64,000 nucleotides of DNA, taken from positions 1 through 64,000 of IMG/VR virus record IMGVR_UViG_3300023218_000040; one strand, 5' to 3'. Each line of letters starts with the position of its first letter. The stretch's first letter is position 1. The DNA comes from a virus. Taxonomy: Duplodnaviria > Caudoviricetes. Positions 7,625 through 15,721 of this stretch are shown in pieces. The notes below the pieces were generated by a model, which was given only the letters and a program-made list of their open reading frames with translations, was not told the DNA's origin and ran no database searches. The translations under genes were made by a program, and so were the position numbers.

Positions 7625-9571
7625 ATGTCAGTTTTTCAAACACTGCTAGGCACTAACCAAAATAGATTTCGTATCGGTCTAGTAGGACCAACAATCTACA
7701 CTGGAACCCCTAACCCAACAGTTACCCCACCCACGCCTGTAACTGATGGTTTTCGTGATGGTGATCTATACATCTGCACCTTGTCTGGCGCTGAAGCCAT
7801 CTGGCTCTTACAGAGCGGCACATGGGTGCAAGTTGGTGTTGGTGGTGGATCGTTTGTAGGCGACATCACCATGAACCCAGGAACACATATTTTTGGTGAC
7901 TCCACAGCTACCGCTACCGACCCTTCATTTACTTTTAATGGTGATCCCAACACAGGATTCTATCGAAGCGCTGTTGACGAGATTGGTATTTCCACAGCCG
8001 GAACTCAAAGATTTGCAGTAGAAGCTGATGGTACTCTTTCCGCAACGACTGTATCATACGAGACTCTGGTGCTGTCCGACAATGACATTCCGAATCGGAA
8101 GTTTGTTGTTGACAACTTCCTTGCCATAGCTGGAGATACGATGACTGGCGACTTGACGTTCGCATCATCAGCACAAGCTCTTCTCTCTAATGGTACCGCA
8201 GCAAACCCATCTATCACCTTCACCAGTGACTTGAATACTGGTCTGTTTTACCCTGCTGCTACTGGTGAGATTGCCATCTCTTCTAATGGAACAACTGTAG
8301 CCACGTTTTCTCCAAGCGGTCTAGAACTCGGAATTGGCAATCAGGTTGTCGGACCAAACGGAACCGCTGCTGTTCCTGATTACAGCTTTACTGGTGATCT
8401 CACAACAGGTGTATTTGGAACCGGTATCGCTGGACAAATTGGTTTTTCATCCGGTGGTTCACAAACCCTTCTATTGGATGCAACCACTGCATCAGGAACT
8501 CTTCTGTGGAGAGGAGGCGATGGTGTAGTAGAGACTCCAGCAATATCATTCAACTCCGATCCGGATACTGGATTCTTCTGGTCCTCTTCCGGAGTGGTCG
8601 AGTATTCGTCCAACGGATCAAGCTCCTTCGCTTTGGATGGAACTGCAATCGATGGAACCGTGTTCTGGCGTGGTGGTGATGGTACATCAGGCTTACCAGC
8701 GCTATCATTCAACTCCGATCCGGATACTGGCTTCTTTCTGTTGTCTTCAGGAACAATCGGTTTTTCATCCAACTCGTTCTCGTCGTTCGCCATTGATAAC
8801 ATTGCTATCGATGGAACCGTGTTCTGGCGTGGTGGTGATGGGTCCGCTGTAAGTCCAGCAATGTCATTCTCTTCAGCAACCGACACTGGATTGTTCTTGT
8901 CATTAGGTGGGGTAGTTATCTCTACCGGCGGCACTCAGAAGGTCAGTATTGAGTCCGATGGTACGTTGTCGGTTAACACACTTGGATACGAATCCTTGGT
9001 TCTTGCTAACAATGACATTCCAAACAAGCTGTATGTGGATAATCGTGCTCACACGGGACTCATAAACATCTGGGTTCCGGCCAAGGATATGACTCCAACT
9101 ACAACCGCAGGATGCGCTACTCTAACTCAAGTTGAGTTGATAGCTGGACAACCAGAACTTGAAGTCCTCGACTTTGATCAGTCATCTGATGAAAGTGCTC
9201 AGTTTAGCATTGCTATTCCAAACGGATGGGACAAAGGAAGCATCTTTTGGCAAGCATACTGGACTTCGGTATCTGCAACTACTGATAACGTGGCGTGGAG
9301 ACTTCAGGCAGTAGCAGTAGCGGATGGAGATCCAATCGCTGTAGCGTATGGTTCATTTGCTGAGGTCATTGATGCAGCACAAGGAACTGCTAATGACCTG
9401 TATGTATCAGCTATTTCAGACGCAACTCCGGTTGCTGGAACACCAACCAATAATGAGCTTGTGTACTTTAAGATCACTCGTAACACTGCAACTGGAACGA
9501 ACCTAGCTGCTGATGCACGACTGATTGGTGTCAAAATCTTCTATACTCGTGACCAGGGCAACGACGCTTAA
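7625..9571 (+). CDS. Tail fibre-like structural protein
   Basis: 648 aa; repeated PSxxFxxDxxTG and DIPNK modules; CTAAATAC late motif at 7585-7592. Confidence 0.8.
   Translation: MSVFQTLLGTNQNRFRIGLVGPTIYTGTPNPTVTPPTPVTDGFRDGDLYICTLSGAEAIWLLQSGTWVQVGVGGGSFVGDITMNPGTHIFGDSTATATDPSFTFNGDPNTGFYRSAVDEIGISTAGTQRFAVEADGTLSATTVSYETLVLSDNDIPNRKFVVDNFLAIAGDTMTGDLTFASSAQALLSNGTAANPSITFTSDLNTGLFYPAATGEIAISSNGTTVATFSPSGLELGIGNQVVGPNGTAAVPDYSFTGDLTTGVFGTGIAGQIGFSSGGSQTLLLDATTASGTLLWRGGDGVVETPAISFNSDPDTGFFWSSSGVVEYSSNGSSSFALDGTAIDGTVFWRGGDGTSGLPALSFNSDPDTGFFLLSSGTIGFSSNSFSSFAIDNIAIDGTVFWRGGDGSAVSPAMSFSSATDTGLFLSLGGVVISTGGTQKVSIESDGTLSVNTLGYESLVLANNDIPNKLYVDNRAHTGLINIWVPAKDMTPTTTAGCATLTQVELIAGQPELEVLDFDQSSDESAQFSIAIPNGWDKGSIFWQAYWTSVSATTDNVAWRLQAVAVADGDPIAVAYGSFAEVIDAAQGTANDLYVSAISDATPVAGTPTNNELVYFKITRNTATGTNLAADARLIGVKIFYTRDQGNDA
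8500..8840 (+). repeat. Intragenic repeats of the WRGGDG...FNSDPDTG module
   Basis: tcattcaactccgatccggatactgg occurs twice and atcgatggaaccgtgttctggcgtggtggtgatgg occurs twice. Confidence 0.8.
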
Positions 9572-10197
9572 TCCAAGTTTCGTGCAATCAACTGTGCGTG
9601 CAGAATAACTAGAAGAGCGAATGCCATTGCATGAGACTTCTTGAAGAAGTACCGCTTTGGATCATTGTCTGGATTTTCCTCGTCTATTTTCGTCCAAATT
9701 ATTTTCCTGATTTCCTCTCTTGGTTTACCAATAAGGTATCGCTTTCGTGGTCTGATTACAGCAAGAAGTATTGCAACGTCTTCCACAGACTGCGGAGGGT
9801 ACTGTTGGCAGATGCCAAGGTGTTTGGCAAGATGAGTTAGCTGATACCGATTGTCTTCATTGTAGAAAAAGCGTTCGTCAGTAAACCAAGACCAATTCAC
9901 AGGCTTATCAAGAAGCTCGTCAATTTCTTCGTTGGACTCGACCAGATCGTACACATGATTTGGGATCAGGTCTACCTTGAAGTAGCCCAGCTCTTCTGCG
10001 ATCTTGTATTCGAACGCCGACAGACCCGTTATTGGATCAATAGGAAGCTTCTGGAAGTAGATGCCAGTGTTGTGTGGCAGCAACCTTCCATTGTTTTCTT
10101 GAGATGCCCGGACAAAGTTTGACAGGAACGAGATTGCTTTATTCCGATCACTGACATCCAGGTCTACGTCAGGCAGTTCGGTCGCTGTCGGTATCAC
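9568..10197 (-). CDS. Minimal DNA polymerase III alpha (DnaE)-like catalytic-core protein
   Basis: PDVDLD, HNTGIYF, YFKVDL, P.SVED.A.LLAVIRP and FKKSHA are recognisable DnaE motifs in only 209 aa. GTG start with AGGAG SD. Confidence 0.8.
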   Translation of the reverse strand: MIPTATELPDVDLDVSDRNKAISFLSNFVRASQENNGRLLPHNTGIYFQKLPIDPITGLSAFEYKIAEELGYFKVDLIPNHVYDLVESNEEIDELLDKPVNWSWFTDERFFYNEDNRYQLTHLAKHLGICQQYPPQSVEDVAILLAVIRPRKRYLIGKPREEIRKIIWTKIDEENPDNDPKRYFFKKSHAMAFALLVILHAQLIARNLD

Positions 10198-10894
10198 CGT
10201 TGAAATGCTCCTGACATATCTTCTGTACTAGGTTACTAGTTTCCTTCTCGTCACGAACCTTGTCAATCCAATATGACAGGTTGATGTGATCGTCCAGAGC
10301 AAACTCAAGCTCGCCACTGAATCGAGCAACCAACTCATCCAAACATCGTTCATAGCCTAGAAGAACCCATGGGGACAACCGATTTTCACGAACCATGTTC
10401 AAAGCCTGTCCAGGAGTAATGCTGGAGAAAAACTCAACCTGTTCTATTCTGTGATCTTCACACCACACAGCGATGTTCTTGATCGTAGTTTCTACTTGCG
10501 ACTCTGGATCTTCAGTCTTACGAACGTACTCTCGGAATTGTTCCAAACGATCTTCACGATACCAGTCCTTCTCGGGGATATTATGATCCACCAGCCAATC
10601 CACATATTTGTAGCTGGATACCACATATTCCTGTGAAGAAAAATCAGCAAGTTTGACGAAGGCACTGTAGAACGGGGACTTGCAGAAATCCTCCATGTTC
10701 TTCATCTTGCCACTGCGAAGCAGACCGGTTCTACGCTGCCAGTGGTTGAATAAGCGATGGGCTCGGATTACAGTGATGTTGTTGCTATCGATGAAGCGCT
10801 GTTTCTTATCACACATGTGCTTCTCGAACCATGTTTTCCTCTTGAAGTCACGGTTACAGAATGTGCATCGATACTTTCGCTCTAGGAGTCCCAT
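10169..10894 (-). CDS. C2H2 zinc-finger-containing protein
   Basis: YRCTFCNRDFKRKTWFEKHMC at the N-terminus; lies in the replication operon. Confidence 0.7.
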   Translation of the reverse strand: MGLLERKYRCTFCNRDFKRKTWFEKHMCDKKQRFIDSNNITVIRAHRLFNHWQRRTGLLRSGKMKNMEDFCKSPFYSAFVKLADFSSQEYVVSSYKYVDWLVDHNIPEKDWYREDRLEQFREYVRKTEDPESQVETTIKNIAVWCEDHRIEQVEFFSSITPGQALNMVRENRLSPWVLLGYERCLDELVARFSGELEFALDDHINLSYWIDKVRDEKETSNLVQKICQEHFNGDTDSDRTA

Positions 10895-11394
10895 TATGCT
10901 TGTTTCCTCAGTGAGTCAAAGGATTTCTCTAGATCCCTGACATCTTTTGGTTGATATCCAAAGGATTCAGCTAGACGACCCATGGCAGCCTTACTGTTTG
11001 TTTTGCACCACAGAACGGTTTCACTCTCGTTTATGTCCACGTACTTATTGCTCAGTAAATCCAACATTTTGGATACCTGTCTAGCCTTTGTCGGTTTGAA
11101 GAACCTATGTCTAGTCTTTTTACCAAGACCACAACATGCTAGCAACTTCACTTGCAACTCCGGGTGGTCATACAAATCAAACCACCCCATGTTCCCTATC
11201 TGATTAAAGTTCTCGACCAATTCAGCATGATCCGCAGGATTATCCGATCCGGTCATCCACTGTGGAAGCATCCAGATTACGTTCTTTCTTAGTTCCTTCA
11301 GCATATCAGGGTCTTCCCGAAGAGCTTCGTAGATGCCAAGGTTGTTGTCATCCATGTAGGATAACACCGCAAATAGATCCAACTTCCCACTCAC
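10894..11394 (-). CDS. Hypothetical protein, possibly a clamp-loader small subunit (gp62-like)
   Basis: 166 aa, KLDLF N-terminus, coupled in the replication operon. The functional call is tentative. Confidence 0.4.
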   Translation of the reverse strand: MSGKLDLFAVLSYMDDNNLGIYEALREDPDMLKELRKNVIWMLPQWMTGSDNPADHAELVENFNQIGNMGWFDLYDHPELQVKLLACCGLGKKTRHRFFKPTKARQVSKMLDLLSNKYVDINESETVLWCKTNSKAAMGRLAESFGYQPKDVRDLEKSFDSLRKQA

Positions 11395-11897
11395 CAGATA
11401 TCACCGATTGGCCTGTACACTTCGAACTTGCTAGCCGAGAACATGGCACACAGAGGCCCCTTGTTGTTGTCTCCTGGGCGATCTCCCTCCCCCAAGGGAA
11501 CCACAAGCAAATCCTTGTCGCCAAGCTGTGGAGCCGTCCAAGTGGACTGAGGAAAGATGGTCCCTGTTCTCAAAGGTAGGAATTCTGGAGCATATCCGTC
11601 AAGTGGGTTCAGACAGAACACAGGGAACTGTTTTCCCCCCACATCCGACAGCGGAATAGATTGCAGGTATTCCATGTCGGTACACAAGACTGACCAATGC
11701 AACGGCATCACAATCTCATGGTTTCCAATTCGTAATGTGACAGAAGCAGATGAAAATTCTTCGAGGAACTGAATCATCTCAAAGAAGAAATCTGGCTCTT
11801 TCAAATTCTTGAAGCTCAGCACCGAATGATGTACTTCATCACCAACCGACATATTATCGGTATTGATTATTCCGTTTTCAACTGTCAGAACTAACAT
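11391..11897 (-). CDS. Phage hypothetical protein
   Basis: Likely start MLVLTVENG at 11897, overlapping the UvsW stop. The longer ORF-track extension overlaps UvsW and is unlikely. Confidence 0.7.
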   Translation of the reverse strand: MLVLTVENGIINTDNMSVGDEVHHSVLSFKNLKEPDFFFEMIQFLEEFSSASVTLRIGNHEIVMPLHWSVLCTDMEYLQSIPLSDVGGKQFPVFCLNPLDGYAPEFLPLRTGTIFPQSTWTAPQLGDKDLLVVPLGEGDRPGDNNKGPLCAMFSASKFEVYRPIGDIW

Positions 11898-13326
11898 TCT
11901 TGTACTCCACTTCAATGATTTCGAATTTTTGTTTCGCTTCTTTGTATAAGCTACGTCTTGTTGCTGCGTGCTTCTTGGAGAGGCCGGAATCACCACAGAT
12001 ATCAAACACGGTGAGATGCGTTTTGTCATCGGTTCTTCTAAGACCACGACCGAGCGTTTGCATAACCTTCTCAAACTTCTTACCGGGCTCTATAATAATT
12101 AGATTGAAGATACGTGGAATGTCAATACCAGTAGATGCAATACCGAACGTGCAGATCAATACGTTGTTATCGCCCTGATTAAATTTATCGTAAACCTCGG
12201 TACGATTTTTGTCTCTTCCGTCAAGAGATGTGGCTTCCGGAAGTGCCTCAGCTAGAATCTTGCCGTGTTTCCTGTATTGAACAAGAACCAACGTGTTACC
12301 CATGTTATTCGCTACTTCACGGATGGTCTCGGCCATGTAAAGAACACGATCTTTGTCGGTGAATATCCAATTCAATTCATCGGACCATGTTTCGTGATGA
12401 TCACATGACACCAAATAGGACTTATTCTTTGAGTCCTTCAATCTCATCTGATATATTTGAGCTTTAGCTAGAATGTTTTTGTGCTGCAATTCCCATGAGC
12501 GAAGAGTGAAGATGGTCTCTCCAAGGACGGCCAAGATTTGGCTACGTGCCAAGTCTTCCTTGGGTAAGGTTCCAGTGCAGCCAAATCTAAACGGTACATT
12601 GGCTGCTGGACCGGACAACATCTCGTTCAGTACCTTTGCCTTCGCTTGGTGAACTTCGTCTACAATGACTGTCATCACTCCGGAGAACAACTCCGGGAAA
12701 TGATCTAGAGATTGCCAAGTGGCAATGGTGACAGTCTTTCGATCCTTGATTTCACCATACCACATACCAGCATCAATACCTATTTGCTTGAAGGTGTATT
12801 GGGTCTGAACAACAAGATCAATATTTGGGACGATGACAACAACATTACCAACCTCGGAATAAATTTTTGACAACACACCACAGATGATAGTCTTTCCGCT
12901 ACCCGTGGCTAGTTCCAAGACGCCACCGCCATTTTCAATACCCTTATTGACAGCATTGACTTGATGCTCCCAGAGGATAATAGGCTTGCCATCCTTCTCG
13001 TACTCAGAAACAACCAACTCATTGATAAATTCAATCTTCTCGACTAGATCATCATAAGTCTGCCTCTTATCCTCTTGGATCTCGATGTCGTACCCAAGCT
13101 GACTAAGAGGATCAACGATGCGGTCAACCAAATTGAGATAGGTAGCCCCACTGGCCTTGAACAGACGAATCTTACCGTCCCACCTACCAAGTTTGTAAGC
13201 AGGCATGTGAATGTAGCCAGGAACCCAGAAGGTCAGTGCCTCCTGTGCTTTACTCATAGCCTCGGGGTCAAGTCCTTTTACCCTGACGTTGACTTCATCT
13301 TCAATGATTAGTTTTGCTGTTGGCAT
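11878..13326 (-). CDS. uvsW: UvsW-like SF2 DNA helicase
   Basis: LATGSGKT, VIVDEVH, GCTGT and QTLGRGLR motifs; start MPTAKL at 13326. Confidence 0.93.
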   Translation of the reverse strand: MPTAKLIIEDEVNVRVKGLDPEAMSKAQEALTFWVPGYIHMPAYKLGRWDGKIRLFKASGATYLNLVDRIVDPLSQLGYDIEIQEDKRQTYDDLVEKIEFINELVVSEYEKDGKPIILWEHQVNAVNKGIENGGGVLELATGSGKTIICGVLSKIYSEVGNVVVIVPNIDLVVQTQYTFKQIGIDAGMWYGEIKDRKTVTIATWQSLDHFPELFSGVMTVIVDEVHQAKAKVLNEMLSGPAANVPFRFGCTGTLPKEDLARSQILAVLGETIFTLRSWELQHKNILAKAQIYQMRLKDSKNKSYLVSCDHHETWSDELNWIFTDKDRVLYMAETIREVANNMGNTLVLVQYRKHGKILAEALPEATSLDGRDKNRTEVYDKFNQGDNNVLICTFGIASTGIDIPRIFNLIIIEPGKKFEKVMQTLGRGLRRTDDKTHLTVFDICGDSGLSKKHAATRRSLYKEAKQKFEIIEVEYKNVSSDS

Positions 13327-13987
13327 CAAATAGTTCTTCGTATCGTTGTAACCACACCACTTCGGTCTTCTTCCAATGATCATGTCTGGGACAGCGACGA
13401 ACCCAATCAAGCCATTCTTCGTTGTACGCTGGAGTCAAATCTATATTCAAAGCTCTCATTTTCGCCAAGAAAACAGGATTCTCTTCTGCCCACACTATCA
13501 TCTCAGAATGACTCATTTGAATATCGTAAACCCTTAGCTTTTGCATCTGTACTTCGATCCCAAATCTAGAACATATGACCTCTAGCAGCCGATGGTCAAT
13601 CTTTTCGTATTCTGATTTGAATGGTTCTTGGCTACGAATAGTTCGAGGTATATCCTTAATGTAACCTTCTGGGGCATCATGTAGCAGAGCAAACTTCTTC
13701 AAATGATCTGGAACAACGTAACTCAATGCAACACTGTGCCATGCTACTGAATATGGATACGGGGATTGATTTCCATATCTATACTCACAGGCAATCCCAT
13801 GAGCAATATCTTCTACAAAGATTTCGTCCTCATGTGGTTGAAGAGGCCACATAAACCTTCCACTAAAAGTCTGCAACGAATGGTGCATACTGCGCCCCCT
13901 GAGAGGTTGCCAGTATGCACCATTGTATACCCACTGGTCTCCATCTTTAGAGACCATATCCCCCGGTGTTACGCTCTCTTGATCCAT
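13301..13987 (-). CDS. HD-domain phosphohydrolase (YfbR-like 5'-deoxynucleotidase)
   Basis: DIAHG...R(Y)GN...YSVAWHSV...ALLHDAPEGYIKDIP. Confidence 0.85.
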   Translation of the reverse strand: MDQESVTPGDMVSKDGDQWVYNGAYWQPLRGRSMHHSLQTFSGRFMWPLQPHEDEIFVEDIAHGIACEYRYGNQSPYPYSVAWHSVALSYVVPDHLKKFALLHDAPEGYIKDIPRTIRSQEPFKSEYEKIDHRLLEVICSRFGIEVQMQKLRVYDIQMSHSEMIVWAEENPVFLAKMRALNIDLTPAYNEEWLDWVRRCPRHDHWKKTEVVWLQRYEELFDANSKTNH

Positions 13988-14517
13988 GTTTCCTCAATGC
14001 CTGCCACACGAAGGTCTTTGATTTGACTCAACGACATTCCTCTTTGGTCCAGCGATAGAACTACATTCTCAAGCTGATGCTGCTTGTTGGCTACGCATCT
14101 AATGAGGTCCGCTAGAAGCCTGGAATTCTCTTCTGCTGTGGTGAACTGCTTGGCATCCGTGGTGCTCACCTTTCCATACTCTGCCTTGGCATCAGGATCG
14201 GTGATATACCATTTGTATCGATCAGCGGTGTGACCTTCGTACACGGTGTCTAACCAGATACGAACTTGTTGAGCATCCGTGTATAAGGTGCGGTAGAAAA
14301 ACGCCAAACCTGGGGTCTCCATGATCAGAGTGTTTAGTTCCTTGTCCTCTAGAATACAATGCTGCTCAGCATCTTCTACGGCGTCACCCCAATACTCGGC
14401 TGCTGCCAGAATAACTTCAGAGAACTCCTTCATGTTCTCATCATCAGAAATGTCATTGAGACTGTCCCTGATCTGCTCGAAGAATACTCGTGACTTAAAC
14501 TTCGCCTTCTTCGCCAT
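13969..14517 (-). CDS. uvsY: UvsY-like recombination mediator
   Basis: Lies between UvsX and UvsW; helical, with C-terminal L.QIKDLRVAGIE. Start MAKKAKF at 14517. Confidence 0.65.
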   Translation of the reverse strand: MAKKAKFKSRVFFEQIRDSLNDISDDENMKEFSEVILAAAEYWGDAVEDAEQHCILEDKELNTLIMETPGLAFFYRTLYTDAQQVRIWLDTVYEGHTADRYKWYITDPDAKAEYGKVSTTDAKQFTTAEENSRLLADLIRCVANKQHQLENVVLSLDQRGMSLSQIKDLRVAGIEETWIKRA

Positions 14518-15673
14518 CGTTTGGCTCCTCCATGGTATGAACGTAATCTGCGGCTCCGGAGATATCCTCATCAGCTACAGACATCGCTTGCTCTGCGTGC
14601 TGTCTAAACTCCTTTTCACGAAATTTCACTTCAGTACCATCCTTATCCGTGAACGCACGCCATCCTTGCGATGGTGTGTACACAACACCCTCGGACATCA
14701 GAAGGTCGTACAGTCCTGAGTAGCGATCCATGCCACCGAGGTATGGGATCTGAATAGCCACCTTCTCGAACGGCTTGGATACACGGGATTTCAAGTTTTC
14801 GGCCTGAGAAATGATACCCGCAATTCTCTTTTTCTTCTTCTGGTCAGCAAGCTGTTTTTCCTTGATCTTCTCGTAATGCTCGGAGACAGCCTCGTCTTCT
14901 ACATCATCAGAGTAGAGTTCCTTCTTGTCCAGCATGAGAACACCAGAAGCAGCAAAAATCAGTTTGTGTCCACCTGTAGTCTTGTACTTGTGACCGATTG
15001 GACGACCAGTCGCCGGATGCTTTTCCTGGTTATCATAAATGTGAGCGATGCCAATTACCAGAATAGGAAGACCACCAACAAGATGATTGATCTTGGTGAT
15101 CAAATCACCCGTTTGTTTTGCCTTTTGTCCCTGATCTCCCTTCATAACACCAGACTGTGCAGCATCCCACTGCGACAATGTTAGAGCCATGGACCACGAA
15201 TCAATAACAAACACGATTGGTTGAATTTCATCACCAGCCTTCTGTGCATCACGCATAAACTTCACAGTCTTAGAAATCAGGTCGTTAATATCTTCAAGTG
15301 TAGCAGCGTTAGCATAACTGAAATTTTCATCGGAGGTATCGATGCCAGCACGCTGGAAGAACTTGGTACCTTCCTGTCCTGTGTTGGCCCGCTCGACATC
15401 GAACCAGACTACGTGTGCGCCATGATCACGCTGGGCGTGAGCGGACACGTATGCAGCCTGAAGAGACTTACCGGACCCAGAACTACCAAAATAGACGTAG
15501 TTACGTCCAAAAAGTAACCCGCCATTAAAGCGTCCGCTCATCATTCTGTTTAAAGCGTAGTTTCCGGTGTCGGCCCACAACTCACTCGTGTCAAATCCAA
15601 CCGATACGGTTTCGGACTTACTTGACATGAGCACGCTTCTTAGGCCAGCACCAAAGGACTTTTTCTTTGCCAT
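14495..15673 (-). CDS. uvsX: UvsX/RecA-like recombinase
   Basis: DTGNYALN..MSG, P-loop GSSGSGKS, FVIDSW, TTGG and KSRVSKPF motifs. Confidence 0.93.
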   Translation of the reverse strand: MAKKKSFGAGLRSVLMSSKSETVSVGFDTSELWADTGNYALNRMMSGRFNGGLLFGRNYVYFGSSGSGKSLQAAYVSAHAQRDHGAHVVWFDVERANTGQEGTKFFQRAGIDTSDENFSYANAATLEDINDLISKTVKFMRDAQKAGDEIQPIVFVIDSWSMALTLSQWDAAQSGVMKGDQGQKAKQTGDLITKINHLVGGLPILVIGIAHIYDNQEKHPATGRPIGHKYKTTGGHKLIFAASGVLMLDKKELYSDDVEDEAVSEHYEKIKEKQLADQKKKKRIAGIISQAENLKSRVSKPFEKVAIQIPYLGGMDRYSGLYDLLMSEGVVYTPSQGWRAFTDKDGTEVKFREKEFRQHAEQAMSVADEDISGAADYVHTMEEPNDGEEGEV

Positions 15674-15696
15674 AGTGATTTCCTTTGATAGACAGT

Positions 15697-15721
15697 AAGG
15701 GGGTGGCAAAGCCACCCCCTT
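15697..15721 (-). terminator. GC-rich hairpin between gp32 and uvsX (weak terminator or attenuator)
   Basis: AAGGGGGTGGC-aaa-GCCACCCCCTT is an 11-bp perfect stem with only a short U tail. Confidence 0.6.

Follow-up and report, generated by a model that had tools for sequence, protein, structure and literature searches.

A 209-residue protein of an uncultured jumbo phage is probably the C-terminal unit of a minimal DNA polymerase III alpha split over two genes

Canonical family C DNA polymerases, as represented by the DnaE and PolC structures 2hnh, 3e0d, 5lew and 3f2b, hold the whole of their active site in one gene; a single chain of ~1100 residues combines a Pol-beta-like palm (with D401, D403, D555 and K553 in E. 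coli numbering) and fingers marked by RP and FNKSH motifs with PHP, thumb, beta-clamp-binding and OB domains. In contrast, the split minimal form of DNA polymerase III alpha (Pol III alpha) divides its active site over two genes. This "phage-specific minimal version" was described, from sequence, in group 2.2 jumbo phages, where it is carried beside a family B polymerase, and was put forward as an image of what the ancestral enzyme looked like (Iyer, Anantharaman, Krishnan, Burroughs & Aravind, 2021, Viruses 13:63, PMC7824862). Here, we examine a gene for a 209-residue protein lying in the first 64,000 nucleotides (hereafter the window) of the IMG/VR virus record IMGVR_UViG_3300023218_000040, the full 204,014 bp of which we analysed (CheckV completeness ~55%). 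We assign the protein, at a probability of roughly 0.85, to the C-terminal unit (C-unit) of the split minimal Pol III alpha that T4-like (group 2.2) jumbo phages encode in two genes; the partner in that system is an N-terminal unit (N-unit) encoded elsewhere in the genome. The split enzyme is already published, and the gene is a divergent environmental member of it; what this locus adds, besides that divergent member, is the precise position of the split, the existence of fused forms in nature and fold-level evidence for a core that spans both halves.

The open reading frame (ORF) is real and intact, and every motif that an earlier note on this stretch had listed is present in it. Translation starts at a GTG codon (10197), with an AGGAG element ending ~9 nt upstream; the start overlaps the upstream zinc-finger gene by 29 nt, and the stop codon shares the TTAA at 9568–9571 with that of the second of two tail-fibre-like genes, which runs convergently. 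The motifs are collinear with those of E. coli DnaE (K-12 dnaE translation): PDVDLD (residues 9–14) corresponds to PDFDVDF (D401, D403, D405), HNTGI (42–46) to HAGGV (within KHAGGVVI), FKVDL (73–77) to VKFDF (K553, D555), LAVIRP (145–150) to ALFRPGP, and FKKSH (185–189) to FNKSH (K758, H760). Only 8 residues precede PDVDLD, and the homologs are alike in this respect, all of those aligned starting within a few residues of PDxDxD.

Over its full length the protein belongs to phrog_11778, annotated "DNA polymerase" (PHROGs, E = 1.6e-49), which is the C-unit family. Pfam gives it no match at E ≤ 1, and PF07733 does not detect it; this is of relevance to annotation, in that C-units escape Pfam and are often annotated as hypothetical or else given the misleading label of a complete "DNA polymerase". 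Full-length relatives at 30–38% identity were located by tblastn in 96 phage records, all of them jumbo myophages of the RaK2/121Q/PA5oct/Atu_ph07/XacN1 kind, and large protein collections hold more than 150 close relatives and ~300 cluster representatives, nearly all 180–220 residues long. Across an alignment of 37 homologs (37–78% identity), residues D10, D12, D14, H42, G45, K74, D76, P150, K152, K186, S188 and H189 are invariant; the catalytic aspartates that the earlier note had described as retained (D10, D12 and D76) are among them.

Comparison with the published system places the protein within the same family, with the same start at the DxD strand, the same invariant residues and the same position in a block of genes after UvsW. 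Identity to the C-units of RaK2, 121Q, PA5oct, Atu_ph07 and XacN1 is 31–38%, and does not exceed 38% for any cultured-phage copy, whereas many metagenomic copies reach 50–78% and one (P0001, on a contig of 360,469 bp) is 98% identical. The locus differs from the published examples in its divergent, uncultured lineage, in a lineage-specific insert around residues 108–120, and in the tail-fibre genes that lie toward the primase. C-unit genes also occur on contigs binned into bacterial metagenome-assembled genomes (MAGs; L022–L027, labelled Polynucleobacter, Legionellales, Rickettsiales, Verrucomicrobia and Chitinophagaceae); two of these, L024 and L026, look like phage contigs that were mis-binned, since phage-type neighbours are present there.

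Profile or fold comparison was needed to reach Pol III alpha, because single-sequence searches failed: phmmer of the single C-unit sequence against PDB sequences returned no relevant match, and hhalign of the family profile against a single-sequence E. coli DnaE recovered the RP motif only, at a probability of 12%. When the family profile was compared with PDB sequences, the best match was Pol III alpha (5lew, E = 0.0017), with which three motif blocks align collinearly. An AlphaFold2 model computed from the homolog alignment (mean predicted local distance difference test score, pLDDT, 90.2; predicted template modelling score, pTM, 0.83) was then matched to the PDB with Foldseek, the top fifteen matches all being of Pol III alpha/PolC type (probability 1.0 for the top eight). 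Structural alignment with VIA-align gave Z scores of 9.8 to Thermus 3e0d_A and 8.3 to E. coli 2hnh (root-mean-square deviation, rmsd, 3.7 Å over 187 residues), against 3.7 for the best unrelated fold. Profile and model thus bear out the family C (DnaE) homology that had been proposed for the protein from its motifs.

The model also defines which parts of the polymerase are present. Residues 2–209 map to E. coli DnaE 394–780, with ~180 residues in between trimmed, such that the C-unit consists of the latter half of the palm together with a reduced fingers core and has no thumb. The PHP, clamp-binding and OB domains are absent, as the earlier note had it, and the tau-binding part is likewise missing. 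Also missing are E. coli palm residues ~280–393, the region of the GRGS motif (R362-G363-S364 in K-12 DnaE). In E. coli, the R362-G363-S364 loop binds the triphosphate of the incoming nucleotide, and to our knowledge every Pol-beta-fold nucleotidyltransferase needs a G-S nucleotide-binding strand-helix element in addition to the carboxylate strands. Because both elements are required, the C-unit is not a complete palm. This bears directly on the central inference of the earlier note, which took the protein for a C-family palm that stands alone and has been repurposed for primer extension, as a terminal transferase or as a signalling nucleotidyltransferase, neighbouring proteins possibly binding the DNA. 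An intact and conserved gene with three invariant aspartates, closely spaced in one block with the gene of a zinc-finger protein, would suit such an enzyme; the chain nevertheless has the DxD strand at its very start, with no G-S strand-helix element before it, and we consider the stand-alone palm very improbable. The absence of the N-terminal half of the palm had been overlooked in that account.

The half of the palm that the C-unit lacks is found joined to it in nature. An exhaustive search of the cluster representatives with the C-unit yielded three fused minimal forms, all metagenomic (P0165, 336 residues; P0180, 353 residues; P0184, 375 residues), the C-terminal parts of which match the C-unit at 34–37% identity and share its motifs (with DxDxE in place of DxDxD in two of the three). 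Their N-terminal parts contain the GRGS motif and then the PDxD strand; it is only in these fused forms, and not in the 209-residue protein, that the GRGS part belongs to the same chain. An AlphaFold2 model of P0180 (pLDDT 86, pTM 0.85) aligns with Pol III alpha/PolC at Z 24.8 and 24.6 (3e0d_A residues 292–841, rmsd 3.2 Å, 311 residues), placing the similarity of the fused homolog to canonical DnaE/PolC at Z 22–25, compared with Z 8–10 for the C-unit alone. The generic Pol-beta-fold transferases ANT(2''), Cid1 and Pol beta align to residues ~70–222 of this model, and this span crosses the split site at ~138, from which we conclude that the catalytic core needs both pieces. For generic transferases the sole alignment is one that spans the N+C junction, a further point against a palm that would act by itself.

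In genomes available as complete records, the N-part is a gene of its own. The fused-form profile gave exactly two matches in each of RaK2, PAC2 (PA5oct-like) and Phosso, one being the C-unit and the second an ORF that lies 34, 44 and 224 kb from the C-unit, respectively (E 2e-17 to 2e-22), and that covers only the N-part (profile positions 9–132). These N-unit ORFs encode 169–177 residues, contain GVGRGSSV, and stop immediately beyond EFLK, the loop that precedes the DxD strand. The GRGS motif was seen only in N-units and in the N-part of the fused forms. The wider N-unit family numbers at least 8000 proteins of 172–177 residues, all with PF07733, and occurs in 93 phage records against 96 for the C-unit, in the same genera. 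The remaining DnaE segments thus exist as a split gene in every complete relative examined, which, together with the matched occurrence of the halves and their fusion in three natural proteins, counts against a stand-alone palm. A mixed MAFFT alignment of fused forms, N-units and C-units misplaced the N-unit tails and was not used, and a search with the N-part of P0180 against short proteins gave no matches.

Precedent for a family C polymerase made from two distant genes exists in cyanobacteria, where split dnaE genes (DnaE-n and DnaE-c) are joined by split inteins. The C-unit might by analogy be one part of a DnaE whose halves are joined by a trans-splicing intein, or else a decaying fragment of a full-length dnaE. 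The cyanobacterial enzyme, however, is split in the fingers and its chains are ligated by the intein, whereas the break in the split minimal form runs through the palm active site and involves no intein. The short leader before PDxDxD and the termination of N-units at EFLK leave no sequence that could accommodate intein halves, no intein domain is detected with Pfam, and a uniform length over the ~300 cluster representatives is not what decay would produce; we regard either origin as scarcely credible.

A different objection concerns catalysis. The thumb and most of the DNA-contacting parts are absent, and a family B replicase is already present in these phages, circumstances in which the C-unit (with or without the N-unit) could be a non-catalytic derivative that serves the recombination machinery or the T4-like replisome as a structural or regulatory subunit. 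Against this, the aspartates, K74 and the KSH residues are invariant down to 37% identity and N-units keep GRGS, as expected of an active site under selection, and a non-catalytic role therefore appears improbable to us.

The assignment to a two-gene enzyme has points against it, one being that the partner was not seen in this phage. PF07733, which detects N-units elsewhere, finds none in the 204-kb record; nor does the fused-form profile, nor a local hidden Markov model of six N-parts run with filters off over every six-frame segment. In addition, the literature searched contained no experiment on any member of the split-enzyme family. Further searches gave the same picture: a regular-expression scan of every ORF in the 204-kb genome for motifs of the GRGS type produced no candidate, phmmer with E. 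coli DnaE 271–400 and with the fused-form N-parts matched none of the record's own ORFs, and five related IMG/VR contigs (15–50 kb) held no N-unit. An N-unit partner is consequently something we infer for this phage, and the failure to detect one is also what a stand-alone palm would predict.

The record, however, is without much else. Topoisomerase II, gp44, gp45, RNase H and NrdA were not found in the 204 kb by tblastn with the RaK2 proteins (topoisomerase II was also sought with Pfam), and neither a family B polymerase nor a DnaB-type helicase was found there. In RaK2, the N-unit is flanked by the topoisomerase II genes on one side and the gp44 clamp loader on the other, and in the present record a primase gene, open at the contig start, marks where the replication module leaves the record. 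As the whole replication module is absent from a fragment that is ~55% complete, incompleteness of the record best explains the missing N-unit; genes missing together in this manner speak for incompleteness rather than loss, and hence against the stand-alone palm. Less probably, this divergent lineage lost its N-unit and uses another partner. As to membership of the T4-like group 2.2 phages, the record has UvsW, UvsX, UvsY, a gp32-like single-stranded DNA-binding protein and the gp61 primase, the family B polymerase not being on the fragment.

Under the assignment to a split minimal Pol III alpha, the C-unit would supply the two palm strands that bear the metal-binding carboxylates D10, D12 and D76 (equivalent to E. 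coli D401, D403 and D555), K74 (equivalent to K553) next to the third aspartate, an H-x-x-G hairpin, and what remains of the fingers core, including the RP and KKSH motifs. By itself it should be unable to form a nucleotidyltransferase core. The preceding strand-helix element, with an R-G-S motif predicted to hold the triphosphate of the incoming deoxynucleoside triphosphate, would come from the separate gene of ~170 residues, which in relatives ends one loop before PDxDxD. The two chains would associate non-covalently, with no intein, and the active site would be built across the chain boundary; the product would be a polymerase core of ~380 residues devoid of PHP, thumb, clamp-binding and OB domains, which we expect to polymerise DNA. 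Such an enzyme would accompany, and not replace, the family B replicase of the phage. More speculatively, the conservation of the C-unit behind UvsX/UvsY/UvsW, taken with the separate family B replicase of relatives, points to a function in recombination-dependent replication or repair. A polymerase of ~380 residues with its active site built from two separately encoded chains would offer a naturally occurring minimal model for the catalytic core of family C.

The features of the window to which we refer are collected in Table 1.

Table 1. Positions in the window of the probable C-unit gene, of the genes in its block and of other features mentioned in the text.
Feature	Position	Strand	Basis
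Probable C-terminal unit (catalytic-carboxylate and fingers-core) of split minimal Pol III alpha, 209 residues	9568–10197	-	phrog_11778; invariant residues; PDB profile; AlphaFold2 fold
CCHC (C2H2-like) zinc-finger protein, 241 residues	10169–10894	-	phrog_11058, E = 2.4e-39
Conserved 166-residue protein	10894–11394	-	phrog_11758, E = 1.7e-6; syntenic in relatives
Conserved 168-residue protein directly after UvsW	11391–11897	-	phrog_11279, E = 4.5e-24; syntenic
UvsW-type DNA helicase, head of the block running through the 168-residue, 166-residue and CCHC proteins to the C-unit	11878–13410	-	Pfam ResIII, Helicase_C, UvsW_N; 38% identity to RaK2 UvsW
HD-type deoxyribonucleoside 5'-monophosphate phosphatase, between UvsY and UvsW	13301–13987	-	phrog_318, E = 4.8e-35
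UvsY-like mediator, upstream of the block	13969–14571	-	PF11056, phrog_231
UvsX-like recombinase, upstream of the block	14495–15715	-	phrog_97, E = 5.8e-52
gp61-type primase, open at contig start	1–921	-	tblastn with RaK2 gp61: 26% identity over 289 residues, E = 7e-25, at 40–855
Two tail-fibre-like proteins, 785 and 648 residues	4830–9571	+	repeated NPxxPQDAxTKxYVD-type motifs
Large terminase, 1031 residues	17632–20727	-	
HNH/homing endonuclease, 482 residues	25684–27132	+	phrog_559, E = 1e-120

The C-unit ends a packed minus-strand block that runs from UvsX through UvsY, the HD-type phosphatase, UvsW and the 168-residue, 166-residue and zinc-finger proteins, with gene overlaps of 1–29 nt. 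From UvsW onward this order is kept in RaK2, PAC2 and Phosso, in IMG/VR contigs and in MAG-binned phage contigs. The zinc-finger gene that had been noted upstream of the C-unit is confirmed, as a CCHC variant: its C-x2-C-x12-H-x-C finger (C10, C13, H26, C28) is invariant in 10 homologs, its profile matches classical C2H2 fingers in the PDB (E = 6e-7, over the finger only), and the protein is encoded in 93 phage records, drawn from the genera in which the C-unit is found. The gene for the 168-residue protein likely starts at the ATG at 11897 and not at the TTG at 12074, an alignment of 8 homologs beginning at the Met of the former; its product occurs in 89 phage records, in the same genera as the polymerase halves, and its profile has no PDB sequence match.

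The 166-residue protein has no Pfam match, its profile has no PDB sequence match, and the nearest ESM Atlas cluster, a weak language-model lead, carries PF16790 on 11% of its members. A clamp-loader subunit had been suggested as a possibility for this gene; the Atlas lead to PF16790 is the one observation in favour of a small subunit of the T4 gp62 type, whereas hhalign against T4 gp62 gives a probability of 0.3%, and the ORF that directly follows gp44 in RaK2 is one other than the homolog of the 166-residue protein. Translational coupling and a narrow phyletic range common with both polymerase halves raise the idea that the 168-residue, 166-residue and CCHC proteins are further subunits of the split polymerase, giving back the DNA-binding or processivity functions that went with the thumb, clamp-binding and OB domains, in a multi-chain family C enzyme dedicated to UvsX/UvsW-driven recombination-dependent replication or repair. 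This appears unlikely to us; the phyletic range of the zinc-finger and 168-residue proteins is compatible with a functional link and equally with their being clade-specific core genes.

Two further differences from RaK2 were seen around the block. Just before UvsW, where the HD-type phosphatase gene lies here, RaK2 has a DnaQ-like "DNA polymerase exonuclease subunit", and between primase and C-unit, where the two tail-fibre-like genes sit here, RaK2 has only two small genes.

Elsewhere in the window, the large terminase gene contains an insert of ~430 residues (residues ~196–631) that matches families seen in inteins and homing elements of helicases and ribonucleotide reductases. The large terminase subunit (TerL) of RaK2 aligns to this gene in pieces that flank a gap of ~1.27 kb, and the insert is probably an intein. 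Beyond the window, a second TerL-like ORF of 978 residues (record 80896–83832, minus strand) aligns by tblastn with residues 90–448 of RaK2 TerL (27% identity, E = 2.5e-30). The HNH/homing endonuclease gene lies between tail-tube-like genes, on the opposite strand.

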